Assembly: GCA_965277895.1 (NCBI GenBank)
Contig: CBDIDR010000001.1
Location: 512,430 to 576,429, forward strand
Direction of reading: 5' to 3'
From: Flavobacteriales bacterium
GTDB lineage: Bacteria > Bacteroidota > Bacteroidia > Flavobacteriales > UBA7312
Length of the DNA stretch: 64,000 nt
In this document: positions 32,841 to 62,593 of the stretch, piece after piece
Position numbering within the stretch: the first letter of the stretch is position 1
Layout of the letters: the number at the start of each line of letters is the position of its first letter
Notes under the pieces: generated by a model
What the model was told of the DNA's origin: nothing
The model's input: the letters and a program-made list of their open reading frames with translations, nothing else
Databases searched by the model: none
Position numbers and translations under genes: made by a program

Positions 32841-33427
32841 TCAGAGTACAAATATCGGAAAGAAAAACTTAATATGGAATTATATTTTCCTTTGTTTAGC
32901 CCATAAGTAGCTCCTCCTGGATGGTCTTGGATAGGTGTGAATGGCAATGAATTAGTGATTTCCCAAAACATAAAAAGTCTTGGTTTTAGCTTAATCCCTG
33001 CGGCTAATTTTGCTCCAATGTCGAATTTATTGTAATCACTTTTTGTGACATCTTTATAGCCATAAATATCATAGGTTTTACCATCTAGCAGTACGGAAAA
33101 CAGCAAGCCGCCTTCATAAATAAATCCTTTTGATGATTTTTGTACACACCAAGATGTTTCAATGTATGATAAGTCAATTCGGAAATTACTGTTGAGGTCA
33201 TTACTACCTTTATCAATGTAATACATAGCTAATTCTCCTCTAGTGGCTAAGTTTATGGGATGGTTTACAAAGGAACCCAATTTTACACCCACTTTATTGA
33301 AGCCTCCTAATTGGTCACCAGAAACTTGTGAAGTACTAATACCTCCTATGGCACCAGCCTTGAAATTCTGTGCCGATAGTATTCCAGCAGTAAGTAGTAA
33401 AATGAATATAAAGTGTAATCGAATCAT
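32837..33427 (-). CDS. Small predicted outer-membrane beta-barrel protein (porin-family-like)
   Basis: Signal peptide (LTAGILSAQ). 196 aa with alternating hydrophobic beta-strand pattern throughout. No enzyme motif. Confidence 0.5.
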   Translation of the reverse strand: MIRLHFIFILLLTAGILSAQNFKAGAIGGISTSQVSGDQLGGFNKVGVKLGSFVNHPINLATRGELAMYYIDKGSNDLNSNFRIDLSYIETSWCVQKSSKGFIYEGGLLFSVLLDGKTYDIYGYKDVTKSDYNKFDIGAKLAAGIKLKPRLFMFWEITNSLPFTPIQDHPGGATYGLNKGKYNSILSFSFRYLYSE

Positions 33428-34383
33428 CTAAAGCTTACGCCAATACCAGCTGAAGTTATAGGGTAGTCTGAAAACGTTTGGTTGGCATAGATTGTAAATA
33501 TAGCAAATTGAAGCCTAACCCCTGCCGCTACTTGAAAAACTGATTGGGATTCAAATTCCATATCTAGAGGGACATTAAATTCGATGACATTAGTACTTCC
33601 AAGTTGAAAATTGGTGTTAGAACTGAATGAAGTTTTCACAGAGTTATAACCCATACTTCCATAGGCAGTAATGAGTGCGAATTTCTTAGACAATATAAGG
33701 TTATATGTAGCGGCATCAATATCTAAACTTACATCTTGCTTTACACTTTGACTTTCGACTTCAAAAGACGTTTTAAATCTACTTAACGCTCCTTGAAAGG
33801 ATAGGTCGAAAGGCAGTTTGTTCACAATAGGTATCCATTGAAGGAGATCGTGCTTTACACCTGCTCCATATAATTTGATAGAACCTTCACCAATGAAACC
33901 GATATCATAGTCATAAGCAGGTATATATCTTACATTTACTTCAGTGCCTTTGAAAAAACCAATGCCAGCATTCAGGGTTGGAATAGGAATAGATGTTAAA
34001 GAGACATTTTGTTCAGGCATAGTAAATGTACTCGAAAAATTACTTCCTGTATAGTCAATCTCCGCACCCATTCCTTCACCAAGAATCGTGGGTGTAAAAT
34101 TATCACTACTACTAAAATTAGCAATGTCATTTGGGTTGAATGATTTTTGCTCGTCTGAAAGGGTTATCATGTTTATTGTAAGGCTCACATCAAAACCAGC
34201 TAGTTTATGAGGTTTAGCAGTATTGTACCAACCGCTATTAAGTCCTGCTCCTATACTATTTGAGAAGGGGGAAAAATAGGCTGATAAGAACGCCTCTGCA
34301 TCATCGCTATTAACGATGTTGTTTTGTTGAGCACTAGATGAAAGAAATACAAATGCAAAAATTAAGGTTAAGATGTTTTTCAT
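33424..34383 (-). CDS. Secreted/outer-membrane hypothetical protein
   Basis: Signal peptide FLSSSAQ. 319 aa, beta-rich composition, no recognisable catalytic motif. Confidence 0.45.
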   Translation of the reverse strand: MKNILTLIFAFVFLSSSAQQNNIVNSDDAEAFLSAYFSPFSNSIGAGLNSGWYNTAKPHKLAGFDVSLTINMITLSDEQKSFNPNDIANFSSSDNFTPTILGEGMGAEIDYTGSNFSSTFTMPEQNVSLTSIPIPTLNAGIGFFKGTEVNVRYIPAYDYDIGFIGEGSIKLYGAGVKHDLLQWIPIVNKLPFDLSFQGALSRFKTSFEVESQSVKQDVSLDIDAATYNLILSKKFALITAYGSMGYNSVKTSFSSNTNFQLGSTNVIEFNVPLDMEFESQSVFQVAAGVRLQFAIFTIYANQTFSDYPITSAGIGVSFR

Positions 34384-34395
34384 AGTCTAATTTCT

Positions 34396-35196
34396 TTAAT
34401 CAGTTAGATGAATCTTTTCGGCTTGCAATACTTCTTTATTGCTATCATTGTATACGTAAGCCACTACATTGCAGTTACTTCTTACCCAATTATTATCTAA
34501 ACTATAATCAAATTCGAATGAGGAATATTCGCTAGTCAAAGTAATATCAGTACCCCAAGTGCCATTAACATTGGTTCTTAAGACGTGGTTATGCTCGTAA
34601 TCTTCCACTAAATCTACACCGTCAATTTGGTAATCAATAATTTTATCTTCGGTAATACATACCACTAACTTTAAGTTCCCGCTTATATCACTCAAACTTT
34701 TAGCCCGTACTGTAATTTTGTTATTACTTTCTGAAAGTAATATTCCTACTGATGGCGTTTGATTTAGGATTTCAGTGACCATGCTTGCCCACTCTGTATA
34801 GTCTACGAGTACATTTTCAGGATATCCTTTTCTATTTACCATTCCGATAGGAAAACTCTCAGGGCCAAAAAAGGTAGCTAATTCGTCTCCAGCAGTTGTT
34901 CTAAAATCGGTAGTAAATACCCCAGATGGTGCGGCGAAAAAACCAGAGTGTACGCCAATACCTACAATTTTACCTTCAAATAAGTTTTCAATAGTATGTA
35001 ACTCAGAAGATGCTAAGGGGCAGTTTGTACACTTGTAGCCAGTGAAGTCTTCAATGAGTACTTTTTGCACAATAGTAGTTGTATCGACTCCACCGCCGCC
35101 ATTATTATCTCCTTGAAGAAAATCGGTTCTTTCAATTTTATCGCAAGAACTAAAAAATGCAATCAATACGATTAGATATGTAGTTGTAATTTTCAT
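34396..35196 (-). CDS. Lipoprotein with thioredoxin-like CxxC region (Omp28-related family, by recollection)
   Basis: Lipobox AFFSSC followed by a Gly-rich linker, then VLIEDFTGYKCTNCP (CxxC). Confidence 0.55.
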   Translation of the reverse strand: MKITTTYLIVLIAFFSSCDKIERTDFLQGDNNGGGGVDTTTIVQKVLIEDFTGYKCTNCPLASSELHTIENLFEGKIVGIGVHSGFFAAPSGVFTTDFRTTAGDELATFFGPESFPIGMVNRKGYPENVLVDYTEWASMVTEILNQTPSVGILLSESNNKITVRAKSLSDISGNLKLVVCITEDKIIDYQIDGVDLVEDYEHNHVLRTNVNGTWGTDITLTSEYSSFEFDYSLDNNWVRSNCNVVAYVYNDSNKEVLQAEKIHLTD

Positions 35197-35199
35197 GTT

Positions 35200-36855
35200 T
35201 TAAAAGCTTGAGGTGATACTTAAAGTAAATCCGTTGGAAGATGGTACGTTTTTACAAACTCCTCCTACACAAAATACACCTTCACGTTTTTTACCATATC
35301 CTAATTCAAATCTATTCGTTCCTTTTGAGTAACCACAACTAATGTTGAGGTAATGAACAGCTTCATGCGACACGCCATCGTGGTCCGTGTAGCCGCCATT
35401 GTATTGGTCTATAAAGGCAAAAAACCAGTGTGGGGAAAAGGTATATTCTACTAGGCCCATTACCCAATCGCCTTGGTCATAGTCATATTCTTTGCTGTCA
35501 TCAATAGATAAATATTGAAACTCTGTTCTTACTGTATGTTTTGGCTTTATTTTATAATTCACATCAATAATACCTATTCTTGCGTGAATATCTTTACCGT
35601 AGTTTTTACCTTGAATAACATCTTTGTTGTATATAATATTAAGGTAGTTTGCCATAACTTTTACCTTTTTGCTGATTTTCTTTTTGATGTCAAAATTGAA
35701 GTCTCTAAAATATAACTCCTCACCAATAACACTAAAGAACATAGGGGTATGGCTTTCTGTTTCAGTCAGTACAGATGAACCACCATTTAGACCATTTATT
35801 CTGGAATAGTTAAGGCCTAATTGCGTGCCGTATTTACCACCTAGTGGGCTTTTCTTTTTAAAGGTATAATTTACTTGTCCTTGAAAGCCTAATTCGCCTA
35901 ATGGTTGTGTTGCAAAAGGGTAAAAGGCAGCCAAGGTATAGACGTGTTGCTTGCTTATTGCAGGAATGAAGTTTAAGGTCAGTTCTTTTCCAGTTCCCCC
36001 TCTTTTTGAGCGATAATCCATATTATCTACTCTATGTGCCTCAAGAATAATACCTAAACCTCTTTCAGAGTATGTTAAATTTGCCATTAATGCGTTGCCC
36101 GGAGCATAGTTGTTGTAGGTTACGCCACCAGCAGGGTCATTAAATTTGTAAGCGTACTCTGAATTGAAGGAAAACTTTCCTCTGTTAACAGTTGTTCTTA
36201 ATGCATATGCAGCAACATTTTCTGGAAGGTTATAAACAGGGTTATTGTCTTCTTGAAAACGACTTACAAAGCTACCTCCAACAATGGCGTTTGTTTTGCT
36301 GTTTTCTAAAGAAAGAGCATCATTAACATTTAATTCACCATCAATTCCTCGAATGATACCAGGACCTTGTTCCCAAAATAAACGCTGTTTAGCCACAAAA
36401 CCTTTAAGGGATAAACCTTTAGCTGGAGTATATTTTAAGCGAACCCCATCCATAGCGTTATCGATTCCTAAGCTTTTTTCTTCATAACTTCTGAAGATAA
36501 GTCCATTACCAAACTGCTCATAGAAATTACCAACGGTAATGTCTAATCCATACACATTGTACTGTGCAAATCGGTAGGGAATACCATTTCCATTGAATCT
36601 AGAGTCAAAGTCTTGAAGGGCATTTAGGTAGCTTTCGTAACGAATACCTGCAGTAAAGTTACCTTTATTGAACAGGATATTTGAATAACCATTCATTAGC
36701 ATAAACTCATCTACTTTTGATGCGTTTATTGAAGGGTCTTCTGTATAGGTTTGTGCATTAAAGTTAAAATCCCCTTGAATAGTTCCAGGGGAATTTTCTT
36801 GACCGAATACTACAAACGGTAAAAGCACTATTAGGAGGAGATTTAATTTTTTCAT
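35200..36855 (-). CDS. Predicted outer-membrane beta-barrel protein (DUF6029-like, by recollection) with a C-terminal CVGGVC pair
   Basis: Signal peptide VVFGQ. 551 aa, beta-strand-rich, terminal residue Phe (...LSITSSF). The FCVGGVCKNVP motif lies ~20 aa from the C-terminus. Confidence 0.5.
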   Translation of the reverse strand: MKKLNLLLIVLLPFVVFGQENSPGTIQGDFNFNAQTYTEDPSINASKVDEFMLMNGYSNILFNKGNFTAGIRYESYLNALQDFDSRFNGNGIPYRFAQYNVYGLDITVGNFYEQFGNGLIFRSYEEKSLGIDNAMDGVRLKYTPAKGLSLKGFVAKQRLFWEQGPGIIRGIDGELNVNDALSLENSKTNAIVGGSFVSRFQEDNNPVYNLPENVAAYALRTTVNRGKFSFNSEYAYKFNDPAGGVTYNNYAPGNALMANLTYSERGLGIILEAHRVDNMDYRSKRGGTGKELTLNFIPAISKQHVYTLAAFYPFATQPLGELGFQGQVNYTFKKKSPLGGKYGTQLGLNYSRINGLNGGSSVLTETESHTPMFFSVIGEELYFRDFNFDIKKKISKKVKVMANYLNIIYNKDVIQGKNYGKDIHARIGIIDVNYKIKPKHTVRTEFQYLSIDDSKEYDYDQGDWVMGLVEYTFSPHWFFAFIDQYNGGYTDHDGVSHEAVHYLNISCGYSKGTNRFELGYGKKREGVFCVGGVCKNVPSSNGFTLSITSSF

Positions 36856-36858
36856 TGT

Positions 36859-37350
36859 CTATTTTGAAAGTGCTTCTATTTGCTCATATAGTTCGTATTC
36901 ATCACCATCTTTGTAGCCAGTGTGTTGCCAAACAATTTCTTTCTTAGAATTAAGTAAGAAAGTATGTGGTACACCTCCTACACCCATAGCTCTTTTGAAA
37001 TCTCCGTTTGGATCACAGTAGACTTCGTATTCCCACATTTCTGAATTTACTTTAGGCTTAACTTTTGACATATTTCTTGCATCATCAATAGAAATAGCAA
37101 TAATTTTTACGTCTGTTTCATCTTGCCAATCTTCGTACACTTCAGCAATGGTAGATAATTCTTTGATACAAGGTTTGCACCAAGTTGCCCAAAAACTGAT
37201 AACAATAGGGTTGCCGTCATTATCAAATTCTGATGAGTTGATTATGGTGTTCTCTAAAGTTTTTAAATCAACTTTTGGTAGTGTTCTGTTTTGCGAAAAG
37301 GCTACAAAATTGATGCTGATTAGAGCGGAAATTAAAAGGAATTTTTTCAT
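36859..37350 (-). CDS. TlpA/ResA-like periplasmic thiol:disulfide oxidoreductase
   Basis: Signal peptide and the thioredoxin-fold active site SFWATWCKPCIKEL. 163 aa. Confidence 0.85.
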   Translation of the reverse strand: MKKFLLISALISINFVAFSQNRTLPKVDLKTLENTIINSSEFDNDGNPIVISFWATWCKPCIKELSTIAEVYEDWQDETDVKIIAISIDDARNMSKVKPKVNSEMWEYEVYCDPNGDFKRAMGVGGVPHTFLLNSKKEIVWQHTGYKDGDEYELYEQIEALSK

Positions 37351-37372: not shown

Positions 37373-37418
37373 AAAAAAAGGTCAGCAATTAGTTTTGGCT
37401 AATCTACTGACCTTTTTT
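37373..37418. terminator. Bidirectional-looking terminator hairpin between the T9SS thioredoxin gene and the tlpA-like operon
   Basis: GGTCAG (37380-37385) pairs with CTGACC (37407-37412), with an inner ATTAG/CTAAT pairing. An A7 run lies upstream and T6 downstream, so it can terminate either strand. Confidence 0.6.
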
Positions 37419-37437: not shown

Positions 37438-38955
37438 TTACTTGCTAACAGTAATTTTTATTGTATTGATTTCACCGTTTATTGATAGGTGAGCAAAGTA
37501 AATACCGTTAGTCATTTTATCAACGTTAATGCCTATAGTGTTATTGCCAGAATTTAGAGAATAGTTTTCTCTCATAATAGTTTTACCTAATACATCTACA
37601 ATTTCAAGGGTAGTATTAGCATTTTCTAATAAGTCTACTGAAATGGTAGCATTAGAAGAAATTGGATTTGGATATAAGGATACTGAGATATTATTTCCTT
37701 CAATAATTGAAGTTGTTCCTTCTCCATCTGAGTCAGCACCAAAGTTTTCTTTTGTATTAAATCCAAAGTTTGGCTTACTCATGTTTTCAATAACTGCTGT
37801 ATTTCCAGCATAAACTGCATATCCTGCCTCATCTAAACTTGATAAAGAAATACCATCACCAAAAGAATCGTCAATATTTAGTTCATAGCAGTCAACTCCA
37901 GCAGGTAATGCTACAGGATATTCAAAGGTTTGCATAGCGTCAGGGCCACCTGCTCCATATTGATCATCTGTTCCAGCCTCATAAGGTCCAAAACTTGCGA
38001 GAGTATTACCATTGCCGTCGTTTAATTCCCAAGTAATTTCACCAGGGTAATTATCTGTAACTATTACAACTTTCACTAAATTTTCGGAGGTAAATCCAGC
38101 CAGGCTAACAAATATCTTACCTTCATTTCCATCAGTATACAAATCAGTGGTTCCATTAGGCTGTGATACAACAACGTCAAAATTAAGTTCATTTTGTACA
38201 TTGTCAATTTCAGTGAACTCAACTGTAGTAGTAGCTAAAGAGGCTAAATTACCTTGCCAGTTTACTGTTTCTATTGCTTCTGCATTTCCTTCTTCAAATA
38301 ATTCAATTGTAGCTGATGTTAAATTATTAGTTCCATAGTTACACAATGTGATGCTTGGTGTTACACTTTCGCCTGCAATACACATGATGTTAGTGTTATC
38401 TTCTAAAGATGAGTTATCAGTTGCACCAACAGGAGAAACACCACAGTTTGCAGAAAATTGTGATAATACACTTGCTGTAGGTGATTGACCAAATTCATAT
38501 ATAGTTCCATCTGGACAAACACCATATATTGTAGGGTAATATGATATTTCTAATAAATTGCCTACGGAATTGTCATCAATTATTGGATAAGGAGTACCTT
38601 CAATCCAGTTTCCTTGAGTGCCGCTAGTAGTGCCTTCTAGGTCAGCTTGACCCGTGTTGGCGTCTCCTTCGACAAATAATACGCCGATTTCATTACTTCC
38701 TCCTGGACCGTATACATTGTATAAGTCTTTGAGAGTATGTGCTTCATGGAATGACCAACAAGGTCCACACCAAGTTGCAGATACGTCAATGATAACTGGC
38801 ATGCCATTATTTAAGTAGTCAGAGTATAAAGAATGGGAATTTCCATTAATATCAACTGCTGTGAAATCTGGGGCAGTAGAGCCATCTGCTAATTGTGCAG
38901 TTGCGTTAAATGTAAATGACACTAAACACGCTAAGGCTAATAAATATGCTTTCAT
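37438..38955 (-). CDS. T9SS-secreted thioredoxin-fold protein (WCGPC) with middle beta-rich domains and a type-A C-terminal sorting domain
   Basis: Preferred start MKAYLLALACLVSFTFNATAQ (ATG at 38955-38953). Redoxin-like N-terminal domain APDFTAVDINGN...IIDVSATWCGPCW. C-terminus VSLYPNPISSNATISVDL...NGIYFAHLSINGEINTIKITVSK. Confidence 0.75.
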   Translation of the reverse strand: MKAYLLALACLVSFTFNATAQLADGSTAPDFTAVDINGNSHSLYSDYLNNGMPVIIDVSATWCGPCWSFHEAHTLKDLYNVYGPGGSNEIGVLFVEGDANTGQADLEGTTSGTQGNWIEGTPYPIIDDNSVGNLLEISYYPTIYGVCPDGTIYEFGQSPTASVLSQFSANCGVSPVGATDNSSLEDNTNIMCIAGESVTPSITLCNYGTNNLTSATIELFEEGNAEAIETVNWQGNLASLATTTVEFTEIDNVQNELNFDVVVSQPNGTTDLYTDGNEGKIFVSLAGFTSENLVKVVIVTDNYPGEITWELNDGNGNTLASFGPYEAGTDDQYGAGGPDAMQTFEYPVALPAGVDCYELNIDDSFGDGISLSSLDEAGYAVYAGNTAVIENMSKPNFGFNTKENFGADSDGEGTTSIIEGNNISVSLYPNPISSNATISVDLLENANTTLEIVDVLGKTIMRENYSLNSGNNTIGINVDKMTNGIYFAHLSINGEINTIKITVSK

Positions 38956-38985: not shown

Positions 38986-38993
38986 CAAAATTA
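38986..38993 (-). promoter_or_regulatory. Candidate -7 promoter box (TAATTTTG on the minus strand)
   Basis: The plus strand reads CAAAATTA, matching TAnnTTTG on the minus strand. It lies 30 nt upstream of the preferred ATG at 38955. Confidence 0.35.
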
Positions 38994-39039: not shown

Positions 39040-39073
39040 AAAAAAAAGAGCAGCCAAATTTGACTGCTCTTTT
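39040..39073 (-). terminator. Rho-independent terminator after the short Omp28-like gene
   Basis: AGAGCAG (39047-39053) pairs with CTGCTCT (39064-39070). On the minus strand the hairpin is followed by T8 (plus-strand A-run 39040-39047). Confidence 0.7.
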
Positions 39074-39091: not shown

Positions 39092-39478
39092 TTATTCCTT
39101 ATTTGATACTAAGGTCCATGCCCCTCTATTCATCGAAGTTGAACTTCCAGAAAATACATGTCGATTAATAGTTCCAGTTGGATAACCTGTAATTCCCGAT
39201 TGACCTGCTAGTTGTGGGCCAAAGGCAGTATTTAAGTTTGGATATGACGTTGGAGCGTATCCACCAGTATGGACTCTGATTAAAACAACATCGCTTGGAT
39301 TAGCTACTTTTATGTCGTTTGCTATCTTATGTCCATCGGGGCAGTAAGGACAATTTCTACCAGTATATTCCTCAAGTAAAACATTTTTGTTTTCAGCTTG
39401 GGTTGTATCAACTAGCAACTGTGCGAATGAAGAAATACTAACAGCAATTCCCATTATAATTAGAAGATGTTTTTTCAT
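39092..39478 (-). CDS. Short secreted thioredoxin-like CxxC protein, homologous to the N-terminal part of the Omp28-like lipoprotein at 34396-35196
   Basis: Signal peptide ISSFAQ. VLLEEYTGRNCPYCP aligns with VLIEDFTGYKCTNCP of the paralog. Only 128 aa versus 266 aa. Confidence 0.5.
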   Translation of the reverse strand: MKKHLLIIMGIAVSISSFAQLLVDTTQAENKNVLLEEYTGRNCPYCPDGHKIANDIKVANPSDVVLIRVHTGGYAPTSYPNLNTAFGPQLAGQSGITGYPTGTINRHVFSGSSTSMNRGAWTLVSNKE

Positions 39479-39695: not shown

Positions 39696-40403
39696 ATGAA
39701 AAAAGCAATACTTTTCTTTTTAGTTGTGTCAACTGTTCAAGTTTTTTCTCAAAGCATTACTGTTGAGCCACACGAATACAATGTGAATACTGGAAATTCT
39801 ACTTCTTTATTTGGTGATTTAGGTATTGATATTACTGTAAAAAATATTTCATCTAACACTATTGATATAAAAGTTTCTAGGGAAGTTATTTCAGCAACTT
39901 CAGGCACTGAGAATTACTTTTGTTGGCAATCCTGTTATTTACCTTCAACTGACGTTTCGCCGCATACTCTCTCATTCTCTCCAGGACAAGAGTTACCATC
40001 AAACTTTCAAGTCCACTTCGATAATAAAGGGATTGCACCGGCTTCAGCAGTCATAAAATATTGTGCCTTTAATGCAGATAATGAATCTGATTCAGCTTGT
40101 GCAATTGTGAATTATAATGTCAATGTTGGTGGATTTGATAATATTGAGAGTAGTAGCTTTTCGGACTTTCACCCTAATCCAGCATCGTCTTATGCTAGTT
40201 TAAATTATACAATTCTACCCTCACAAGCTGCGGAAGTAGTAGTAACTGATATGCTTGGGACAGTTGTTGAGAATAAAATCATTCAAAATAATGAAGGTAT
40301 TGTAAGATTAGATGTGAGTAATACTCCAAACGGTTTGTATTTCGCTAATATTTATGTTGATGGAAAATTGGATGCCATAAAACGATTATTAGTTAGAAAA
40401 TAA
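39696..40403 (+). CDS. Small T9SS cargo protein of unknown function (type-A C-terminal sorting domain)
   Basis: Signal peptide MKKAILFFLVVSTVQVFSQ. C-terminus FHPNPASSYASLNYTI...NGLYFANIYVDGKLDAIKRLLVRK. The N-terminal ~150 aa carries four Cys (CWQSC, YCAF...SAC). Confidence 0.65.
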   Translation: MKKAILFFLVVSTVQVFSQSITVEPHEYNVNTGNSTSLFGDLGIDITVKNISSNTIDIKVSREVISATSGTENYFCWQSCYLPSTDVSPHTLSFSPGQELPSNFQVHFDNKGIAPASAVIKYCAFNADNESDSACAIVNYNVNVGGFDNIESSSFSDFHPNPASSYASLNYTILPSQAAEVVVTDMLGTVVENKIIQNNEGIVRLDVSNTPNGLYFANIYVDGKLDAIKRLLVRK

Positions 40404-42735: not shown

Positions 42736-43310
42736 TAACACATATTCAAGGAAAATTAATAGAAAAAAACCCCTCTTTTGTAGTAATCGATTGCAATGGA
42801 GTGGGGTATTTATTACGAATTTCATTACAAACATTTTCAAAATTATCAGATGATGAATTTTGTAAACTATTTACTCATCTTTCCATAAAAGAAGATGCAC
42901 ACACCCTCTATGGTTTTTTCGATAACAACGAAAGGGACTTGTTTAGGCAACTTATTTCTGTATCAGGTGTAGGTCCAAATACCGCTCAAATGATTCTATC
43001 TTCGTTGAACCCACATGAAATCCAGCAGGCTATTCTTTCTAATAATGTAACTACCCTACAAAGCGTGAAGGGTATTGGAGGCAAAACCGCACAGCGAATA
43101 ATTTTGGATTTAAAAGACAAAGTTATCAAGTTAGATTTAGGAAATTCTTCCACTATTTCACACAATACTGTTAAGGATGAAGCGTTATCGGCATTAACAA
43201 TGCTAGGGTTTAATAAAAATAGTATCGAAAAAGTAATCGATAAAGAACTGCAAGGAGCTTCTGATTTAGGAGTCGAAGAAGTTGTTAAAAGAGTACTTAA
43301 AAAAATGTAA
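42732..43310 (+). CDS. ruvA: Holliday junction DNA helicase subunit RuvA
   Basis: MITHIQGKL... N-terminus. HhH motifs VSGVGPNTAQ and VKGIGGKTAQRI. ATG 42732 overlaps the maeB stop (ATGA). The track start 42666 lies inside maeB. Confidence 0.9.
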   Translation: MITHIQGKLIEKNPSFVVIDCNGVGYLLRISLQTFSKLSDDEFCKLFTHLSIKEDAHTLYGFFDNNERDLFRQLISVSGVGPNTAQMILSSLNPHEIQQAILSNNVTTLQSVKGIGGKTAQRIILDLKDKVIKLDLGNSSTISHNTVKDEALSALTMLGFNKNSIEKVIDKELQGASDLGVEEVVKRVLKKM

Positions 43311-46300
43311 TATTTTTGGCGGCCTTATATTAAGAAATCAGATAGTGATTTATAGACATCTTATTTTTAAGCGAGCACTTTGGTGCTTTTTGTTGTTTTT
43401 GGCACTGAGTAATAGCCTTTTTGCTCAGAACGAAAGCGATAGTCTGATATTTGATTTCCCTGACTCAGAGCCTTGGGAGTCTCCACTAGATGAACAAAAC
43501 AGCGGTTTTTATTTTTCAACCCCATCATTTTTACAGCCAACAATAGAATATGATCCTGAAAGTAAACTGTATAGCGTAGAGCATGAAAACAACGGTTTAC
43601 GTTTAAGTAATTCTTCATATTTAACATTTGATGAGTATAATGACTATAATATTCAGAAGTCTATTTCTGAGTATTGGAAGGAAAAAACAGCCAGTCCAAA
43701 ATTAAATGAAGGCAATCAAAACAAAGGCCCATTGAGCATTGATATAGGGGGTGAAATTTTTGACAAAATTTTTGGAAATAGCACGGTTGATATTAGACCT
43801 CAAGGTTCTGCCGAACTGATTTTTTCTGTAAAACATAACAAGACTCAAAATAATGCTCTGCCTTTAGATAGACAAAGCAATACGAGTTTTGATTTTAAGC
43901 AAAAAATACAAATGAATGTGATTGGTAAAATTGGCGATAAACTCCAGCTGAACACCAATTACAATACAGAAGCTATTTTCGATTTCGATAATAAGATTAA
44001 GCTCGAATACGAGGGTGAAGAGGATGAAATAATTAAGAAGATAGAAATTGGAAATGTTGGCTTACCACTTAATGGAACATTAATTTCTGGAAGCCAAAGT
44101 TTGCTAGGTTTAAAAACGCAATTGCAATTTGGTAGGGCGACAGTTACAACCATTATTTCACAGCAAAAAAGTAATTCAAAGGTCATTGATGTTGAGGGTG
44201 GAGCTCAAACAACAGAGTTTGATATTTATGCCGACCAGTATGAAGCTAATAAACACTTCTTCTTATCCCATTATTTTAGAGAACAGTATAATGAAGCGAT
44301 GTCAAACTTACCTTTCATTAGTTCACCAATAAACATTACAAAAATTGAAGTTTGGGTAACCAATAAAACAGGTACAGTAGAGAATAACAGAAACTTACTA
44401 GCCTTTCTAGATTTAGGGGAATCGGCATCAGACATGTACAATACAACTCTCTTTTCTGACAACGCTGACCAGTCCTTTCCAGATAATGATAATAATACCC
44501 TTTATCAGCAAATGTTGTCTGAAGGAATTAATTTAAGAAATATTAATCAGGTAAATAGTATTTTCAATACCAGTAATTACCCTGACTTTCTAGGCTCTCA
44601 GGATTATGAGAAATTGGAAAGAGCTCGGTTGCTTTCACCTACAGAATACACCTTTCATCCCCAGTTAGGTTATATTTCCTTGAATAGCGTTATTGGACCG
44701 GATGAAGTCCTTGCAGTAGCCTATCAATACACTGTTGGAAATGAAATTTATCAAGTGGGTGAATTTAGCTCTAACGGTCCATCCGCGCCAAGTTCTTTGT
44801 ACGTCAAACTATTAAAAAACTTGAGCTTCTCACCTCTATTGCCAAACTGGGATTTGATGATGAAAAACATCTACTCCTTAGGTGCTTATAATATTAGTGC
44901 TAAAGAATTTTATTTAGATGTTGTATTTGAGAACACTAGAGATAACGGAACAATTACGAATTACATACCAGAAGAAGGCTTAGAAAGTAGACCGCTTATA
45001 AATCTATTGTCCTTAGACCAATTGGATGTACAGCAAGAAAGGCGAGCAGATGGTATTTTTGACTTTTTGCCGGGGACTACTATTTTGACTTCTAACGGAA
45101 AGATAATATTCCCAATTCTTGAACCTTTCGGAGATGATTTGAGGAGTAAGTTTGATAATAACGATATAGCAAATCAGTACGTGTATGACGAGCTGTATGA
45201 CTCAACATTAACAATAGCTCAGCAATTTCCAGAGTATAATAAATTTAGATTGAAAGGTAGTTATCAGTCCGAGTCTGGTGCAGAAATATATTTGGGTGTA
45301 TTCTCAATAGAACAAGGTTCGGTAGTCGTCACTGCTGGTGGGCTTCGCTTGGAAGAAGGGAAAGATTTTACTGTAAATTACTCCATGGGTAAAGTCAATA
45401 TTATAAATGAAGGCATCTTACTTTCAGGAACGCCAATTCGAATAGCAGTTGAAAGCCAATCCTTAGGTCTTCAACAAAAAACGCTAGTAGGAACGCATGT
45501 TGATTATCGCATTTCGGATGATTTTATGTTAGGAGGGACAATATTAAACCTTACTGAAAAACCATATTCTAAAAAAGTAAATACTGGTGACGAGCCTATT
45601 TCCAATACTATTTGGGGATTAGACGGAACCTATAGAAGAGAGTCAAGCCTTCTAACAAAGATTGTTGACTTTTTACCAATTCTTGAAACAAAAGAGAAAT
45701 CAACACTAACAGCACAAGGGGAATTTGCACACCTTATTCCAGGGCACCAAAGAGCAATTGGAGAGTCTGGAACTGCCTATATTGACGACTTTGAAGCGAG
45801 TAGTACAGGAATTGATATTAAAAACCCAGGGGCTTGGTTTTTGGCAAGTTTGCCAAACGACCCTAATATTTTCCCAGAATCAATGCTTGAAAATCAAGCA
45901 CCACGTTTAGGAAATATAAATACGGGAGCTAATAGAGCATTGCTTTCTTGGTACAATATTGACCCTACATTCTATAGAAATTCAAGCACAACGCCATCAC
46001 ATATTGCCAATGATGACAACCAATTGTCTGACCATAATGTAAGAGAAGTTTTAGAAAAAGAGGTATTTCCAAATAAAGACCCACAATACGCTACGCAAGT
46101 TTCAAACTTACCTGTATTGAACCTTTATTTTGACCCAACCGAAAGAGGACCCTACAATTATGATACTGAAAATATAACCACTTCAGGGCTTTTACTCGAC
46201 CCAGAACAACGCTGGGCGGGGATAATGAGAAAGTTAGAAACCACAGATTTTGAAACACAAAATATTGAGTTTGTAGAATTTTGGCTGATGGATCCATTCA

Positions 46301-49300
46301 ATGAGGATTCTGATAATCAGAATGGCGGTACACTTATGCTTAATTTAGGTAATGTTTCTGAAGATGTGTTGAGAGATGGATTTAAAAGTTTTGAAAACGG
46401 CTTACCTTCATCAACAGAATTAGTAAACGTAGATGATACTAGCAGTGTATGGGGAAGAATGCCAACTACTTTTGCCTTAACCAATTCTTTCGATGTTGAT
46501 GCTGAGTCCAGAGAATTCCAAGACGTTGGCCTCGACGGTCTGAGAGATGTAGATGAAAGAACATTTTTTGATACGGCATACATTCAGAAAATTGGAGATG
46601 TTTATGGAACAACTAGTCAAGCATACAGTTTAGCACTAGAAGACCCTTCGTCAGATAATTATAACTATTTTCTTGGTGATGATTTGGACGACGTAAGTGC
46701 ATCCATTTTAAACAGGTATAAGTATTTTTCTGGAATTGACGGAAACTCTGCTATCCCTAACCCAACACCAACTATGTCGACTACAATACCAAATACGGAA
46801 GACATAAACTTTGATAATACTCTTAATGAATCGGAAAGCTATTACCACTACAATATTCCAATTTACCCGAACATGCAAGTCGGAGAAAGTTACATTACTG
46901 ATATTCAAGAATCTGTTGCCAAAACGCCAAATGGAAATAGGGTTATAAAATGGTATCAGTTCAAAGTTCCTGTTCAACAAGCAGATAAAGTTGTAGGCTC
47001 GATAAGGGATTTTAAATCCATTCGATTCATTCGAATGCTGTTAAAAGATTTTGAAGAGCCTGTAGTCCTTCGTTTCGCCACTTTAGAATTAGTTCGTGGA
47101 GAGTGGAGACGTTACAATTTCGATCTTAAAACCGAAGGGGAATATGTGCCAAACGACAATGTGTCAAATACCTCTTTCGATGTATCAGTAGTAAATATTG
47201 AAGAGAATGGAGAGAAAGTTCCTATTCCGTATGTATTGCCACCAGGCATCGAACAAGAGGTCGATAATACAACAACTTATGTCAGAAGACAGAACGAACA
47301 ATCATTAGTATTAAAGGTATGTGATTTAGAAGATGGAGATTCTAGAGCAGCCTATAAAACATTTAATAATGACTTCAGGACATATAAACGCCTTAAGATG
47401 TATGTTCATGCCGAAGCATCTGGAGAAAACGAATTGGACTTGGCGGATGATGATTTATCCTTATTCATTCGATTAGGTACTGATTTTAATGATAACTATT
47501 ATGAGTATGAAATTCCTTTAAAAGTCACACCTTGGGGCGTTTCAAAACTCGATGATGAATTAATTTGGCCTACTGCAAACGAACTAAATATCGCATTTGA
47601 GGAACTACTCGATGAGAAGAAACTACGAAATAAAGCCGTAAGAGATGGCAATCATTCAAGTACGACAGATCCCTTTTCAAGAGCTGGCTCACGAATTACC
47701 GTTGTAGGAAATCCAAATCTAAGTAAGGTAAAAACTATAATGTTGGGTATTCGAAACCCTAAGAAAGGTCAGCCAAATTCTTCTAGTTTTGATGACGGTT
47801 CTACTAAATGCGGTGAAGTATGGTTGAATGAATTAAGATTAACCGATTTTGACGAAAGAGGTGGCTATGCTGCAAATGGTCGAATAAATGCTCGATTAGC
47901 TGACTTTGCAAATGTGAACCTTACAGGAAGTATGAGTACCATTGGCTTTGGAACTATCGACCAAAGTCTTACTGCACGACAAAAGTATGATGCATACCAA
48001 TACGATTTTTCATCGTCCTTTGCACTAGGAAATTTCTTCGGTCAAAAAGCCAATATAAAAGTCCCAATGTATATCGGAGTGTCGGAGTCTATCCAAAACC
48101 CTCAGTACAACCCTCTTGACCCTGATATTACTTTAAAAGCCTCATTAGATGAGCTTGAAACAAAAGAGGAAAAAGATGTGCTTAAAGAAATTGCTCAAGA
48201 CCTTACTAAGCGAAAGTCGATAAACTTCACCAACGTTAGAAAAAACAAATCAAATTCTACTTCGAAGAAAAGTAGGATTTACGACTTAGAAAATTTCTCG
48301 ACTACTTATTCAAGAAACGAAACTTTTTCTAGAAACTCAAGCCTTAAAGAACGTACTACGGTAACTTCAAAAATGTCTTTGAATTATAGTTACTCTTCCA
48401 AGCCAAAGAATATTAAGCCTTTCCAAAAAGTAAAGCTATTTAAGAACAAATACTTTGCTTTAATTAGAGACTTCAACTTCTATACTTTACCAAAGTCGAT
48501 AACTTTCCAAACGGATTTGGATAGGTATTACAATAAAACTCAGTTTAGAAACTTAAACAACCCAGATTTTATACTATCTCCATTTTACAATAAAGCATTT
48601 GTATGGAATAGAAATTACAGCGTTAAGTATGATTTAACACGTACTCTGAAAACGGAGTTTAAAGTAAGAAATACGGCTAGCATAGATGAGCCTCTTGGGG
48701 AATTAGTGAAGTCTGACCCATACTATTCTGTTAAAAGAGATTCAGTTTGGAATAACATCCTCAATTTTGGTCGACCTACCCTATACCATCATTCTATTAA
48801 TGCCAGTTATAATGTGCCACTCTCCAAGTTTCCGTTAACGTCATGGATTAATATGAATACTAAATACACAGCAAACTATGATTGGTTATCGGCACCTTTA
48901 AGTATTCAAAGTTTAGGTAATACCATACAAAACAGTAATAATAAGCAGGTAAATACAACCTTCAACTTCACTCAGTTATACAATAAAGTACCATTCCTCA
49001 AAAAATTAAATAAGCCTAATCCGCGAAGAGCTTCAAGAACTTCTGCAAGAGTAGTGCAGTTACCAAATGAAGTTCAAGACACGGTAAAAACATCCATAAA
49101 GGATGTAATAAATACTTTGCTGAGAACAACAATGCTAGTGAGAAATGTCTCTATTTCATACAGACAAAATCAAGGAATTGTAATGCCAGGTTTCACAAAA
49201 AAACCTCATTTCTTTGGTCAAGATTGGGATGCTATGGCACCAGGAATACCATTTGCATTGGGTAGTCAGGATATAGATATTAGAGAGTTAAGTACTCAAG

Positions 49301-50481
49301 GAGGCTGGCTGACTAACCGAACAGATTTAAACCAATTCTTTAAACTCACCAACAGCGAAACAGTAAACTTAAGAGGTACACTTGAGCCAGCTAAAGGCTT
49401 CAGAATAGAGCTTACGGCAAATAGAACCAAAACAAATAATTCTCAAGAGATATTTAGGTATGATGATTTGGTGAACGACTATCAATCTTTCAATGCGATA
49501 GAAAATGGAAGTCATAGTATCTCATTTATTAGTTGGAATACTGCTTTTATTCGCGATGCTGAAAACCATTCAAATCAGACTTTCCAAGAATTTAGAAACA
49601 ACAGAATTGCTATTGCCAATAGGCTAGCAAATGAAAACCCTTATGATAACTCAATTGTTGATAGTACTGGCTTTCCATTAGGTTATCAAAGCACCTCACA
49701 AGAAGTTTTGATTCCAGCATTTTTAGCGGCTTATGCTGGCAAAAATCCATCCACTGTCAGCCTAAATAAATTCCCGAATATACCAATGCCAAATTGGAGA
49801 ATAAATTTTGATGGACTTAGAAATGTAAAATGGATTAAAAAACGCTTGAATAATATTATTCTTAGCCATTCATACCAATCAACTTACAGTGTTGGTAATT
49901 ATGTTACAAGTTTAGACTATGAACAAGGATTTGAGGACTGGCCAAATGAAGTCAATGAAGCAACTTTAAACTACTATGATAAGTATGAAATTAATCAAGT
50001 AACGTTAAGAGAAAGTCTTAACCCTTTAATTAAAGTGGATATGACATTCAAAAATAGCTTGACGACTCGTTTTGAAATCAAAAAGGAACGAACACTTAAC
50101 CTTGGTTTGAGTAATAATCAGCTAACGGAAAGAGCCTCTAACGAATTGATTATTGGTACGGGCTATAGAATTAAAGAATTAACATTCAATGTAAAAGCGG
50201 CAGGAAGAGCCAAAAAAATCAGCTCCGACCTAGATTTAAAGTTAGACTTTTCAATACGTTCAAACAAAGTAGTTATTAGAAAGCTTGAGGAGAATTTAGA
50301 GGAAATAACAGGAGGGAATAGTGTGTTGTCTATGAAATTTACCGCTGATTATGTGGTAAGTAGCCGATTTAATTTACGTCTATTCTTCGACAAAGTAATG
50401 ACAAATCCATATGTATCAAATAGCTTTCCATCCGCCGTTACAAATGGAGGATTTAGTGTGAGATTTACCTTAGCACAATAG
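43282..50481 (+). CDS. sprA: T9SS translocon / cell-surface gliding protein SprA (Sov family)
   Basis: ~2400 aa with an N-terminal signal (ALWCFLLFLALSNSLFAQ) and beta-rich sequence throughout. The order ruvA-sprA-gcvH is recalled from flavobacteria. The start is uncertain: TTG 43282 overlaps ruvA by 29 nt, and GTG 43345 is an alternative. Confidence 0.85.
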   Translation: MLKEYLKKCNIFGGLILRNQIVIYRHLIFKRALWCFLLFLALSNSLFAQNESDSLIFDFPDSEPWESPLDEQNSGFYFSTPSFLQPTIEYDPESKLYSVEHENNGLRLSNSSYLTFDEYNDYNIQKSISEYWKEKTASPKLNEGNQNKGPLSIDIGGEIFDKIFGNSTVDIRPQGSAELIFSVKHNKTQNNALPLDRQSNTSFDFKQKIQMNVIGKIGDKLQLNTNYNTEAIFDFDNKIKLEYEGEEDEIIKKIEIGNVGLPLNGTLISGSQSLLGLKTQLQFGRATVTTIISQQKSNSKVIDVEGGAQTTEFDIYADQYEANKHFFLSHYFREQYNEAMSNLPFISSPINITKIEVWVTNKTGTVENNRNLLAFLDLGESASDMYNTTLFSDNADQSFPDNDNNTLYQQMLSEGINLRNINQVNSIFNTSNYPDFLGSQDYEKLERARLLSPTEYTFHPQLGYISLNSVIGPDEVLAVAYQYTVGNEIYQVGEFSSNGPSAPSSLYVKLLKNLSFSPLLPNWDLMMKNIYSLGAYNISAKEFYLDVVFENTRDNGTITNYIPEEGLESRPLINLLSLDQLDVQQERRADGIFDFLPGTTILTSNGKIIFPILEPFGDDLRSKFDNNDIANQYVYDELYDSTLTIAQQFPEYNKFRLKGSYQSESGAEIYLGVFSIEQGSVVVTAGGLRLEEGKDFTVNYSMGKVNIINEGILLSGTPIRIAVESQSLGLQQKTLVGTHVDYRISDDFMLGGTILNLTEKPYSKKVNTGDEPISNTIWGLDGTYRRESSLLTKIVDFLPILETKEKSTLTAQGEFAHLIPGHQRAIGESGTAYIDDFEASSTGIDIKNPGAWFLASLPNDPNIFPESMLENQAPRLGNINTGANRALLSWYNIDPTFYRNSSTTPSHIANDDNQLSDHNVREVLEKEVFPNKDPQYATQVSNLPVLNLYFDPTERGPYNYDTENITTSGLLLDPEQRWAGIMRKLETTDFETQNIEFVEFWLMDPFNEDSDNQNGGTLMLNLGNVSEDVLRDGFKSFENGLPSSTELVNVDDTSSVWGRMPTTFALTNSFDVDAESREFQDVGLDGLRDVDERTFFDTAYIQKIGDVYGTTSQAYSLALEDPSSDNYNYFLGDDLDDVSASILNRYKYFSGIDGNSAIPNPTPTMSTTIPNTEDINFDNTLNESESYYHYNIPIYPNMQVGESYITDIQESVAKTPNGNRVIKWYQFKVPVQQADKVVGSIRDFKSIRFIRMLLKDFEEPVVLRFATLELVRGEWRRYNFDLKTEGEYVPNDNVSNTSFDVSVVNIEENGEKVPIPYVLPPGIEQEVDNTTTYVRRQNEQSLVLKVCDLEDGDSRAAYKTFNNDFRTYKRLKMYVHAEASGENELDLADDDLSLFIRLGTDFNDNYYEYEIPLKVTPWGVSKLDDELIWPTANELNIAFEELLDEKKLRNKAVRDGNHSSTTDPFSRAGSRITVVGNPNLSKVKTIMLGIRNPKKGQPNSSSFDDGSTKCGEVWLNELRLTDFDERGGYAANGRINARLADFANVNLTGSMSTIGFGTIDQSLTARQKYDAYQYDFSSSFALGNFFGQKANIKVPMYIGVSESIQNPQYNPLDPDITLKASLDELETKEEKDVLKEIAQDLTKRKSINFTNVRKNKSNSTSKKSRIYDLENFSTTYSRNETFSRNSSLKERTTVTSKMSLNYSYSSKPKNIKPFQKVKLFKNKYFALIRDFNFYTLPKSITFQTDLDRYYNKTQFRNLNNPDFILSPFYNKAFVWNRNYSVKYDLTRTLKTEFKVRNTASIDEPLGELVKSDPYYSVKRDSVWNNILNFGRPTLYHHSINASYNVPLSKFPLTSWINMNTKYTANYDWLSAPLSIQSLGNTIQNSNNKQVNTTFNFTQLYNKVPFLKKLNKPNPRRASRTSARVVQLPNEVQDTVKTSIKDVINTLLRTTMLVRNVSISYRQNQGIVMPGFTKKPHFFGQDWDAMAPGIPFALGSQDIDIRELSTQGGWLTNRTDLNQFFKLTNSETVNLRGTLEPAKGFRIELTANRTKTNNSQEIFRYDDLVNDYQSFNAIENGSHSISFISWNTAFIRDAENHSNQTFQEFRNNRIAIANRLANENPYDNSIVDSTGFPLGYQSTSQEVLIPAFLAAYAGKNPSTVSLNKFPNIPMPNWRINFDGLRNVKWIKKRLNNIILSHSYQSTYSVGNYVTSLDYEQGFEDWPNEVNEATLNYYDKYEINQVTLRESLNPLIKVDMTFKNSLTTRFEIKKERTLNLGLSNNQLTERASNELIIGTGYRIKELTFNVKAAGRAKKISSDLDLKLDFSIRSNKVVIRKLEENLEEITGGNSVLSMKFTADYVVSSRFNLRLFFDKVMTNPYVSNSFPSAVTNGGFSVRFTLAQ

Positions 50482-52853: not shown

Positions 52854-54185
52854 TTGAATAAAATTAGAACATATCTAAAAAGTTTGTACGATGATGTCCA
52901 TTTGATGGAGTTATTGAGAGGAGCTTCAAGTACTTTAATGATAAAATTATTTGGACTTGTTGTAGGCTATGGCTTTGCAATTTACATAACCAATAAGTAC
53001 GGAGCGTTTGTGTTTGGGCAGTATGTAACGGCTTTATTGGTGGTAGAAATATTGAGTATTATTTCGAGGTTAGGAATCGACACTTCACTAGTTAGATTTA
53101 TTTCAAAATATGCTAAGAACGGCTCGGTAAATTTGATTAATCAGTTATATTTCAAATCGGTTGCACTAGTCACTTTTTCCGCTATTTTCTTCACTTTACT
53201 CTTATTGTTTTTTTCTGTTGAAATAGCAGAATTTATGAACCTCAACAGAGATTATTTGTTAGTAGTTTCATTTTCCTTTATTCCTTTGGTGCTATTTTAT
53301 ATGAATGTTCAGGCGATACGTGGACTAAAAAAAATGTTGTCGTATTCATTTCTAAATAATGTAGCGATTACATTAGGTGTATTCATCCTATTGGTAATGT
53401 TTTCTATGTTTACCACATCGGAGATGCTACCTATTTATGCTTATGTTTCAAGTGTATTCATTCTTACATTATTATCCTATTTTTTATGGTTCAATCACAA
53501 AGCAAAAGTTAGTGTAGAGAATATCGTTAATGAGGAGCCATTGTCAACTAATGAATTACTTACCACTTCGTTTCCGCTATTGCTTGGGCAATCGATGATG
53601 ATAATTATGGGAAAAGTGGATTTATTTATGTTGGCAAATATTAGTGGTTCAGTTCAAGTAGGGATATATAATATTGCCCTGAAATTATCAATGTTATCAT
53701 ACATGGGGCTTATGGCAGTGAATAGTATTGCTGCTCCGAAATTTTCTGAAATACATTCTACTGGAGATATAGAAGCACTAAAAAAGATAGTTCAACAATC
53801 CACTAAAACAATTTTTTGGGTGAGCATCCCTGTACTAACCATATTATTACTTTTCCCAGAATACATTTTGAGTGTTTTTGGCGATGAGTTTAAAGTAGCA
53901 TCTTATACTTTGATCATATTGTCTATAGGTAAAATGTTTAGTGCAATTTCGGGTTCTGTAGGTACATTTTTACAAATGGTTGGCAAGCAAAAAGTATTTC
54001 AAAACATACTTATCTTAGCAGCAATCATTAATGTAGGTTTAAATTATTTGCTGATACCTATTTATTGTATTGGTGGAGCAGCCATAGCAAGTGCAGTTTC
54101 TGGAATATTTTGGAATGCGTTGATGATAATTTATATTAAAAAGAATTTCGGTTTTTATACCATATATATACCTTGGATTAAATGA
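52854..54185 (+). CDS. Wzx-like oligosaccharide flippase (polysaccharide biosynthesis / MOP superfamily)
   Basis: 443-aa polytopic protein (about 12 hydrophobic segments) and first membrane protein of a glycan cluster. The TTG start is uncertain. Confidence 0.65.
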   Translation: MNKIRTYLKSLYDDVHLMELLRGASSTLMIKLFGLVVGYGFAIYITNKYGAFVFGQYVTALLVVEILSIISRLGIDTSLVRFISKYAKNGSVNLINQLYFKSVALVTFSAIFFTLLLLFFSVEIAEFMNLNRDYLLVVSFSFIPLVLFYMNVQAIRGLKKMLSYSFLNNVAITLGVFILLVMFSMFTTSEMLPIYAYVSSVFILTLLSYFLWFNHKAKVSVENIVNEEPLSTNELLTTSFPLLLGQSMMIIMGKVDLFMLANISGSVQVGIYNIALKLSMLSYMGLMAVNSIAAPKFSEIHSTGDIEALKKIVQQSTKTIFWVSIPVLTILLLFPEYILSVFGDEFKVASYTLIILSIGKMFSAISGSVGTFLQMVGKQKVFQNILILAAIINVGLNYLLIPIYCIGGAAIASAVSGIFWNALMIIYIKKNFGFYTIYIPWIK

Positions 54186-55670: not shown

Positions 55671-55673
55671 TAA

Positions 55674-58911: not shown

Positions 58912-58913
58912 CT

Positions 58914-60859: not shown

Positions 60860-60883
60860 TCTTTTAATTACCTTTGTTTTCGT

Positions 60884-62464: not shown

Positions 62465-62523
62465 ACCATTTCTAAATAAGGAAATATTTATCCGTTTTAC
62501 AGGGCATTGAAAATAGAAAAAGT

Positions 62524-62535: not shown

Positions 62536-62593
62536 CTTTGGAAAAAATCCTTCCAATTAATGCGTAAGTTACACTAAATCAACCACTTATAAA

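Follow-up and report, generated by a model that had tools for sequence, protein, structure and literature searches.

The DNA analysed here is a stretch of 64,000 nucleotides (nt) from a Flavobacteriales bacterium (contig CBDIDR010000001.1), hereafter the window. On its minus strand, at positions 37438-38955, lies a gene for a type IX secretion system (T9SS) cargo protein with a thioredoxin-fold domain at its N-terminus. The best explanation of this gene, to which we give a probability of roughly 55%, is that it encodes a T9SS-exported surface thiol-disulfide oxidoreductase that is carried on a modular stalk and works with neighbouring envelope redox proteins. The analysis itself shows the domain anatomy, the conserved catalytic residues, the T9SS machinery, the gene linkage and the rapid divergence. 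What we infer is that the protein is in fact exported and catalytically active, in which direction it works (as a reductase or as an oxidase/isomerase) and whether electrons reach it from the periplasm. The main new result is the conserved neighbourhood of the gene, a five-gene envelope redox module. An earlier note, made from the DNA letters alone, had read the gene as an exported thioredoxin, and our analysis confirmed that the feature is real, rightly located and rightly read in outline.

In the proposed mechanism, the protein would first be exported by Sec, after which its type-A C-terminal sorting domain (CTD) would direct it, by way of the T9SS, onto the cell surface or into the medium. 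The thioredoxin-fold domain would then sit at the far end of a stalk of two beta-sandwich modules, away from the membrane. There it would be the outermost member of a module that further comprises a periplasmic TlpA-like protein, a DUF6029 barrel, an Omp28 lipoprotein with a CxxC motif and a small T9SS cargo.

Architecture of the protein

The gene and the predicted parts of its protein are as follows.

37438..38955, minus strand: whole gene, T9SS cargo of 505 amino acids (aa) with N-terminal thioredoxin-fold domain (open reading frame (ORF), homologues, alignment, AlphaFold2 model)
38896..38955, minus strand: Sec signal peptide, residues 1-20, with predicted cleavage between ATA and Q, read from the sequence as MKAYLLALACLVSFTFNATA before the cut and QLADG after it
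38434..38895, minus strand: thioredoxin-fold domain, residues 21-174, TlpA/ResA/Etrx-like (partial profile matches, PDB sequence matches, Foldseek, conservation)
38758..38772, minus strand: codons of the WCGPC active site, residues 62-66 (read from the sequence; invariant in the 35-sequence alignment)
38086..38433, minus strand: D2, residues 175-290, CARDB-like beta-sandwich with invariant Cys192 (model strands)
37714..38085, minus strand: D3, residues 291-414, TDNYPGE...DSFGDG beta-sandwich with invariant Cys356 (domain model with a predicted local distance difference test score (pLDDT) of 96.3)
37687-37713, minus strand: disordered linker, residues 415-423 (pLDDT dip at 415-421)
37441..37686, minus strand: type-A T9SS sorting domain, residues 424-505 (PF18962, TIGR04183, model)

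The gene is real, with at least 653 homologues found in a protein search among 8000 candidates scored. The mechanical ORF runs 11 codons further upstream, to a TTG, and the start is the ATG that gives MKAYLL. Since 34 of 34 aligned homologues begin at this same Met1, the coordinates 37438-38955 are exact; the stop codon occupies 37438-37440. An AlphaFold2 model built from a 35-sequence alignment has a mean pLDDT of 89.4 and four domains. Behind the signal peptide come the thioredoxin fold, a pair of beta-sandwich modules and, last, the type-A T9SS sorting domain. The earlier note had proposed this same order of parts, with an intact active site, and it is correct. Besides the active-site pair, four cysteines (C147, C171, C192 and C356) are invariant in the alignment and look as would be expected of structural disulfides in an exported protein.

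The thioredoxin-fold domain and its active site

The model shows a complete thioredoxin fold over residues ~22-172 (block pLDDT mostly 84-97 across 21-170), with the active-site CxxC at the N-terminus of helix 1 (helix 64-71). The catalytic set comprises Asp57, W62-CGPC-W67 and a putative cis-Pro loop, Y140-P141-T142, which stands before strand 142-146 and whose Pro141 is invariant; an extra pair, C147/C171, is invariant as well. The closest structural match is Etrx2 (4hqz; Foldseek template modelling (TM) score 0.74 on the target, 24% identity, root-mean-square deviation 3.5, 150 columns). This match is the only useful yield of the full-length Foldseek search, which was swamped by unrelated multi-immunoglobulin chains. 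The best PDB sequence matches are putative Bacteroides thiol-disulfide oxidoreductases, 4k9z and 2lja.

We counted conservation of the active site on the 120 best homologues, at identities down to about 35%. The motif is W-CGPC in 112, W-CPPC in 4, W-CSPC in 1 and C-CGPC in 1, and the remaining 2 are N-terminally truncated fragments. W-CxxC is therefore kept in 117 of the 118 N-terminally complete homologues, the C-CGPC protein being the one exception, so that the CxxC, which the earlier note had wanted to see conserved among orthologues, is so. A Trp directly follows the CxxC motif in all 118. The position six before the first Cys, which has the spacing of the buried Asp26 in E. coli thioredoxin, is Asp in 108 of the 118 and Asn in 10, and in 116 of the 120 the putative cis-Pro loop is [YFW]-P-[TIV]. 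Homologue searches rest on shared words, and because ATWCGPCW was one of two patterns in our genome scan, the loci found by that scan are biased towards the motif; the protein-search counts are far less biased, because those matches are full-length at E < 1e-86. Since the catalytic set is near-invariant although family identity falls to 37%, redox chemistry appears to be under selection.

The intact WCGPC site described in the earlier note thus stands, at residues 62-66 and with its catalytic set complete. The layout of the fold is that of the extracytoplasmic TlpA/ResA/Etrx reductases, not that of cytoplasmic TrxA. We rejected classical TrxA because its model TIGR01068 scores 17.7 bits against a cut-off of 96.8. 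A peroxiredoxin was rejected too: the AhpC-TSA profile matches no more than the N-terminal half that is shared, and WCGPC is not a peroxiredoxin-type motif.

Export signals and secretion machinery

A hydrophobic N-terminus precedes the predicted cleavage site, where Ala20 is nearly invariant and Gln21 invariant in the alignment. Substrates of signal peptidase I in Bacteroidota typically have Gln as the first residue of the mature protein. At the other end, the type-A sorting domain claimed by the earlier note matches both PF18962 (residues 427-501, 46.5 bits with a cut-off of 27, E 4.7e-12) and TIGR04183 (41 bits with a cut-off of 23, E 1.4e-10), above the curated cut-offs, and sorting-domain matches reach residue 503. 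The model folds it as a seven-strand beta-sandwich, and it is present in 35 of 35 aligned family members.

The organism has T9SS machinery, two components of which are encoded in the window.

43282..50481, plus strand: SprA/Sov, the T9SS outer-membrane translocon, 2399 aa (TIGR04189, 2604.5 bits against a cut-off of 200)
3369-4271, plus strand: PorP/SprF (PF11751, 228 bits)

The SprA gene lies 4 kb from the thioredoxin gene, directly after ruvA, and the order SprA, RuvA, MaeB and cluster recurs in related contigs (locus L081). Two further CTD proteins are encoded in the window. Another type-A cargo, of 765 aa at 10878-13175 (plus strand), has no recognised domain except its CTD. A large ORF enters at the window start (7-3363, plus strand, 1118 aa listed) and is followed by PorP/SprF; together (7-4271) they have the layout usual for a type-B CTD cargo with a dedicated PorP-like partner.

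A conserved five-gene neighbourhood

A scan of one genome per GTDB species gave at least 550 confirmed loci of the thioredoxin gene. We compared neighbourhoods in 80 of them, 53 of which have at least 5 kb on both sides and are referred to as fully flanked. Four partners recur, listed here as they occur in the window together with a fifth, short ORF.

36859..37350, minus strand: partner 1, periplasmic TlpA/ResA-like thiol-disulfide oxidoreductase with WCKPC (AhpC-TSA 69.6 and Redoxin 56.9 bits, ResA subfamily match)
35200..36855, minus strand: partner 2, DUF6029 outer-membrane beta-barrel (PF19494, 585 bits)
34396..35196, minus strand: partner 3, Omp28-family lipoprotein with N-terminal CxxC, CTNC (NF033782 183 bits, PF11551 115 bits, PDB 2r2c E 6e-17)
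39696..40403, plus strand: partner 4, second small T9SS cargo, 235 aa, with an F-C-x3-4-C-Y motif (Por_Secre_tail match; divergently transcribed)
39092..39478, minus strand: short HBP35/Omp28-N-like thioredoxin-fold ORF with CPYC, 128 aa, with a signal peptide (best PDB match HBP35 5y1a, E 0.0015)

The TlpA-like gene is near the thioredoxin gene in 51 of the 80 loci (38 of the 53 that are fully flanked), DUF6029 in 48 (36 of 53) and Omp28 in 42, and all three occur together in 33 of the 53. The most constant neighbour in a clustering of all locus ORFs is the small T9SS cargo (235-255 aa), adjacent in 56 of the 80. The module is kept across at least four gene orders, from the Crocinitomicaceae type to Flavobacterium and Saprospiraceae. 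Eighteen loci are ordered as in the window, with thioredoxin, TlpA, DUF6029 and Omp28 on one strand. Another 15, mainly from Flavobacterium, have Omp28 downstream and divergent TlpA and DUF6029 genes upstream, and several other layouts exist. Linkage that outlasts rearrangement is a usual sign of a functional connection. The earlier note was right that three envelope proteins with CxxC lie next to the gene (the TlpA-like protein with WCKPC, Omp28 with CTNC and the short Omp28-N-like ORF with CPYC). Treating such neighbours as incidental does not hold, since the TlpA-like protein, DUF6029, Omp28 and the small T9SS cargo are conserved partners across Bacteroidota. They bear directly on the puzzle raised in that note, that a thioredoxin outside the outer membrane has no obvious electron donor.

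The partners' own motifs are conserved as well. WCxPC is kept in 50 of 50 TlpA-like neighbours, and CxxC in 41 of 41 Omp28 neighbours, where it often reads WCGYCP as in HBP35, a Porphyromonas gingivalis protein discussed below. NCBIfam has a model named Omp28-related selenoprotein, and this implies that the CxxC of Omp28 plays a catalytic redox role. Of 12 Omp28 N-termini inspected, 11 had a lipobox followed by acidic residues, and the exception looked like a mis-called start. In Bacteroidota this combination is associated with surface export. The conserved F-C-x3-4-C-[YF] motif of the small T9SS cargo was rejected as a redox CxxC, being C-x3-4-C and not thioredoxin-like; the cargo could be a partner or a substrate. 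DUF6029 has been reported to show HHpred similarity to the Wzi barrel (PMC9603273).

On the minus strand of the window, 33424-37350 is a packed string of genes, encoding in turn the TlpA-like protein, DUF6029, Omp28, DUF6588, a beta-barrel of 196 aa and UbiX. The first three spacers measure 3, 3 and 12 nt, after which the genes overlap by 4 nt. Conservation of DUF6588 and the small barrel does not go beyond the closest relatives. The F. dankookense cluster contains three genes for periplasmic thioredoxin-fold proteins. Elsewhere in the window, at 4468-6675 (plus strand), a gene of the TauE/SafE sulfite-exporter family stands beside a fusion of metallo-beta-lactamase and rhodanese (persulfide-dioxygenase-like). 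The two make a small pair for sulfur oxidation or detoxification, in the window that also contains the thiol-redox cluster.

The short ORF at 39092-39478 is 65% identical to the 5' part of a gene in a related locus (L083, 3575-4684). That gene continues into an Omp28 domain and Por_Secre_tail, as does its counterpart in locus L084, which gives both an HBP35-type architecture. In L083 and L084 an in-frame TGA replaces GGA two codons after CGYC, identically in two independent samples. The window ORF appears to be what is left, after truncation, of an Omp28-like gene that ended in a T9SS CTD. The in-frame TGA and the cut-short upstream gene could reflect gene decay or, less likely, programmed read-through or recoding. 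By this comparison the locus joins two independent designs of thioredoxin plus CTD, of which the gene at 37438-38955 is the TlpA/ResA-type one.

The neighbourhood invites a stronger and, in our view, unlikely version of the best explanation: that a relay encoded next door keeps the thioredoxin domain reduced outside the cell, as a recharged surface reductase. The electron path would run from cytoplasmic thioredoxin over DsbD/CcdA and the periplasmic TlpA-like protein to Omp28 in or at the DUF6029 barrel, and through the T9SS thioredoxin to disulfides or oxidised targets outside the cell. A CxxC protein is predicted for each of three successive compartments, and these proteins and a barrel are indeed linked through several gene orders. 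The 3-nt gaps between TlpA, DUF6029 and Omp28 suggest co-translation and complex formation; the CGPC dipeptide, which is strongly reducing, is retained along with the buried Asp, and both the selenoprotein model and the three F. dankookense genes fit. However, a thiol relay across the outer membrane is without precedent, and no DsbD/CcdA gene was found in the conserved neighbour clusters or in the annotated parts of the window, which do not include ORFs 52854-63448. The Omp28 topology assumed here is itself inferred, and a terminator-like hairpin lies between the genes.

Comparison with known systems

HBP35 of P. gingivalis combines a thioredoxin motif with a CTD, and the recombinant protein reduces insulin faster than E. 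coli thioredoxin, an activity lost in the C48S/C51S mutant (PMC2907840). Its surface display and attachment to anionic lipopolysaccharide (A-LPS) are T9SS-dependent (PMC3120885). HBP35 is thereby a precedent for a thioredoxin-active protein as surface cargo of the T9SS (PMC2907840, PMC3120885). The same precedent makes a T9SS-exported thioredoxin an already known kind. The gene is therefore less novel than the earlier note thought, and more structured, given its conserved five-gene module and rapid turnover. A 2023 review of effectors places HBP35 only under haem acquisition (PMC10202324).

HBP35 (PGN_0659; 5y1a) shares with the window protein a signal peptide, an N-terminal thioredoxin-fold domain with CxxC, an intervening region and a type-A CTD. 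However, HBP35 has WCGYCPGG and groups with the Omp28 N-domain, whereas the window protein belongs to another thioredoxin subfamily. HBP35 is a haem-linked protein of 344 aa from an anaerobic pathogen; the window protein has 505 aa, carries the CARDB-like and D3 modules and comes from an aerobic, apparently marine lineage. Homology to HBP35 was rejected: 5y1a is absent from the 60 listed PDB matches of the window protein and instead tops those of the short ORF 39092-39478, and hhalign of the family profile against HBP35 residues 28-126 gave only 29% probability.

A further comparison is with TlpA, ResA and CcmG (DsbE), extracytoplasmic thiol-disulfide reductases. ResA (NF002854), 4k9z and 2lja are the best sequence matches, and the N-terminal beta-hairpin with thioredoxin fold, the xPDFT...ATWCxPC context and the extracytoplasmic location are shared. 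These proteins, however, are single-domain, membrane-anchored or periplasmic, recharged by DsbD/CcdA and not secreted, whereas the window protein scores 31 bits against a cut-off of 170, has an insertion of ~30 residues (~97-125) and carries a Trx-like CGPC. Etrx1 and Etrx2, surface thioredoxin lipoproteins of S. pneumoniae, likewise display a thioredoxin outside the cell, and 4hqz is one of them. The Gram-positive surface is the outer face of the cytoplasmic membrane, with CcdA in reach, whereas the window protein must cross the outer membrane; another difference from Etrx is that no methionine sulfoxide reductase partner was found among the annotated conserved neighbour clusters. TrxA shares WCGPC, the Asp six before the first Cys and the x-Pro-Thr cis-Pro loop, and differs from the window protein, which has a signal peptide, extra structural Cys and 330 further residues.

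The middle modules

The ~240 aa between the thioredoxin-fold and sorting domains, which the earlier note had described as beta-rich, are predicted to form two beta-sandwiches, at residues ~175-290 and ~291-414. For D2, CARDB matches were found in 4 of the 35 family members. D3 has no Pfam match and no PDB sequence match by profile search, and Foldseek with its pLDDT-96 model gave no significant PDB fold match (best E 2.9e-3, TM < 0.45). When 1.84 billion representatives were searched with a profile, 7481 proteins had D3, 2380 of them reaching E 1e-10 or better; the module is often repeated 3-10 times in tandem, and the proteins that carry it are as long as 4444 aa. Those sampled contain T9SS CTDs, CARDB or a subtilase domain. 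D3 (TDxYxxETxW...DSYGDG) has the look of a widespread extracellular repeat that is undescribed and has no model in any library, and since it is a common repeat in large secreted proteins, we treat it as a generic stalk or binding module. Relatives of 729-741 aa carry the D2-D3 pair in duplicate, so the middle region behaves as a stalk of variable length. Four acidic residues are invariant in D3, which suggests a possible metal or ligand (glycan) site.

These modules bear on a different reading, in which the redox motif does its work in the periplasm, ahead of export or in place of it, or the role is mainly non-redox, with the beta modules binding a ligand, haem or particles. The hemin binding of HBP35 maps to residues 135-344 and is independent of C48 and C51 (PMC2907840), the invariant acidic cluster of D3 could bind metal or glycan, and D3 is a generic module of many secreted proteins. 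Nevertheless, we regard this reading as very unlikely: the catalytic set is near-invariant across the family at 37% identity, D2 and D3 vary in number in the manner of a stalk rather than a functional core, and every aligned member has the CTD.

Distribution and divergence of the family

The lineages with the family include Crocinitomicaceae, Cryomorphaceae, Flavobacterium, Psychroflexus, Mesonia and Saprospiraceae, and cultured carriers are F. dankookense, F. arcticum, F. rivuli, F. subsaxonicum, Mesonia ostreae and Psychroflexus aestuariivivens. Databases list the members under generic names, as 'T9SS type A sorting domain-containing protein' or 'thiol-disulfide isomerase/thioredoxin', and literature searches returned no paper on this protein family. 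A few variants of 437 aa close with a short tail still similar to the last CTD strands. A copy 97% identical to the thioredoxin protein occurs on metagenomic contigs, the next-best match being 63%; the closest genome-collection locus among those listed belongs to a TARA Oceans Flavobacteriales metagenome-assembled genome (L053). Within Bacteroidota the family is large, widespread and uncharacterised, and it is separate from HBP35.

The values below describe divergence at the locus. For relatives that have diverged equally in housekeeping genes (MaeB about 84%, RuvB about 94%), they give the identity in percent with the window's own protein.

T9SS thioredoxin: L081 63, L083 35, L053 33
TlpA-like: L081 85, L083 79, L053 75
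DUF6029: L081 81, L083 83, L053 79
Omp28: L081 67, L083 61, L053 60
Small T9SS cargo: L081 60, L083 51, L053 53

One syntenic slot holds three clearly distinct allelic types in genomes that share ~84-95% identity in their housekeeping genes. A homologue search that listed only relatives at 80% or more gave over 100 DUF6029 clusters at 80-83% identity to the window copy. Where the window has one thioredoxin gene, L081 has two tandem paralogues (8350-11515; P0006 and P0002, 54% and 63% identical), and tandem copies occur in 8 of the 80 loci. The thioredoxin locus is a hotspot of gene turnover. The gradient, in which the periplasmic and barrel proteins change slowly, the predicted surface proteins fast and the T9SS thioredoxin fastest, fits surface exposure and turnover, if indirectly. 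Because of this fast turnover at a fixed locus, the thioredoxin gene is a likely target of surface-directed selection.

Transcription of the gene

Three elements flank the gene, all on the minus strand.

38986..38993, minus strand: candidate Bacteroidota -7 box, TAATTTTG, 31 nt before the ATG (position; motif count at chance level)
39044..39073, minus strand: intrinsic terminator of the upstream short ORF (13-bp stem with 5 G-C pairs, T-run)
37374..37418, minus strand: hairpin with U-run between the thioredoxin gene and the TlpA operon (-25.1 kcal/mol, z -4.52, 0 of 200 shuffles as stable)

The earlier note had described a separate transcription unit with its own -7 box and hairpins on both sides. 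The hairpins are there, and the box stands at the right position; since the motif is no commoner in the window than chance (88 found against 92 expected), the box alone is weak evidence. Upstream, the terminator at 39044-39073 probably isolates the gene from incoming transcription. Downstream separation is uncertain, as the TlpA-like gene begins 87 nt past the thioredoxin stop codon and the minus strand of this 87-nt spacer contains no -7 box. Because the TlpA operon thus lacks a box of its own, the hairpin at 37374-37418 could attenuate transcription without fully stopping it; it is either a terminator or an attenuator.

On a further reading, the neighbours would share regulation only, for example as an envelope oxidative-stress regulon. 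Once outside, in oxic seawater, the CxxC would be mostly oxidised, and the protein would act as a disulfide oxidase or isomerase, or by mixed-disulfide capture, with no dedicated donor. The hairpin does suggest separate, perhaps higher expression, and the organism is aerobic, since alternative complex III and cytochrome c oxidase are encoded at about 18-29 kb of the window. When exported to the periplasm, E. coli Trx1 works as an oxidant, and a dsbA mutant of E. coli is complemented by hbp35 (both cited in PMC2907840). We consider this account unlikely, however: the strict CGPC and buried Asp are more typical of reductases than of DsbA-like oxidases, and co-regulation alone poorly explains the persistent linkage to a periplasmic reductase-type protein.

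Weighing the surface oxidoreductase

Several points weigh against a surface oxidoreductase that works with its neighbours. The Pfam matches of the window protein fall below the cut-offs (Redoxin 22.4 bits with a cut-off of 26.6, AhpC-TSA 20.9 with 26, Thioredoxin 18.5) and cover residues 24-96 only. The insertion splits the match, and homologues do exceed the cut-offs (F. dankookense AhpC-TSA 34.4 bits; best family E 4.5e-10). Partner genes are lacking at 15 of the 53 fully flanked loci, though at least some of these are second copies, with the cluster elsewhere in that genome. The hairpin between the thioredoxin gene and the TlpA operon is strong, and for an outward-facing Omp28 the sole pointer is the acidic residues after its lipobox Cys. 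TlpA-like proteins often serve cytochrome maturation, and respiratory genes are near in the window. We know of no mechanism that passes thiol-disulfide electrons across the outer membrane, and literature searches returned no experiment on any family member.

The most far-reaching interpretation, which we put forward as speculative, is that the five linked genes form a thiol-disulfide relay crossing the outer membrane, from the TlpA-like protein through Omp28 docked in DUF6029 to the T9SS thioredoxins, with HBP35-type proteins as a fused variant. If true, such a relay would give aerobic marine Bacteroidota a rechargeable surface reductase, which could unfold disulfide-rich substrates, counter oxidants or reduce surface targets. 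The electron source of an extracellular thioredoxin is a question common to HBP35, and linkage to a reductase, a barrel and a CxxC lipoprotein offers a genetic handle on it. Cultured hosts exist in Flavobacterium dankookense, F. arcticum, Mesonia ostreae and Psychroflexus. T9SS cargo is usually discussed as hydrolases, adhesins and S-layer proteins. The occurrence of this family at 550 or more loci, with many more in metagenomes, and its conserved catalytic set suggest that surface thiol chemistry is common and overlooked in environmental Bacteroidota.

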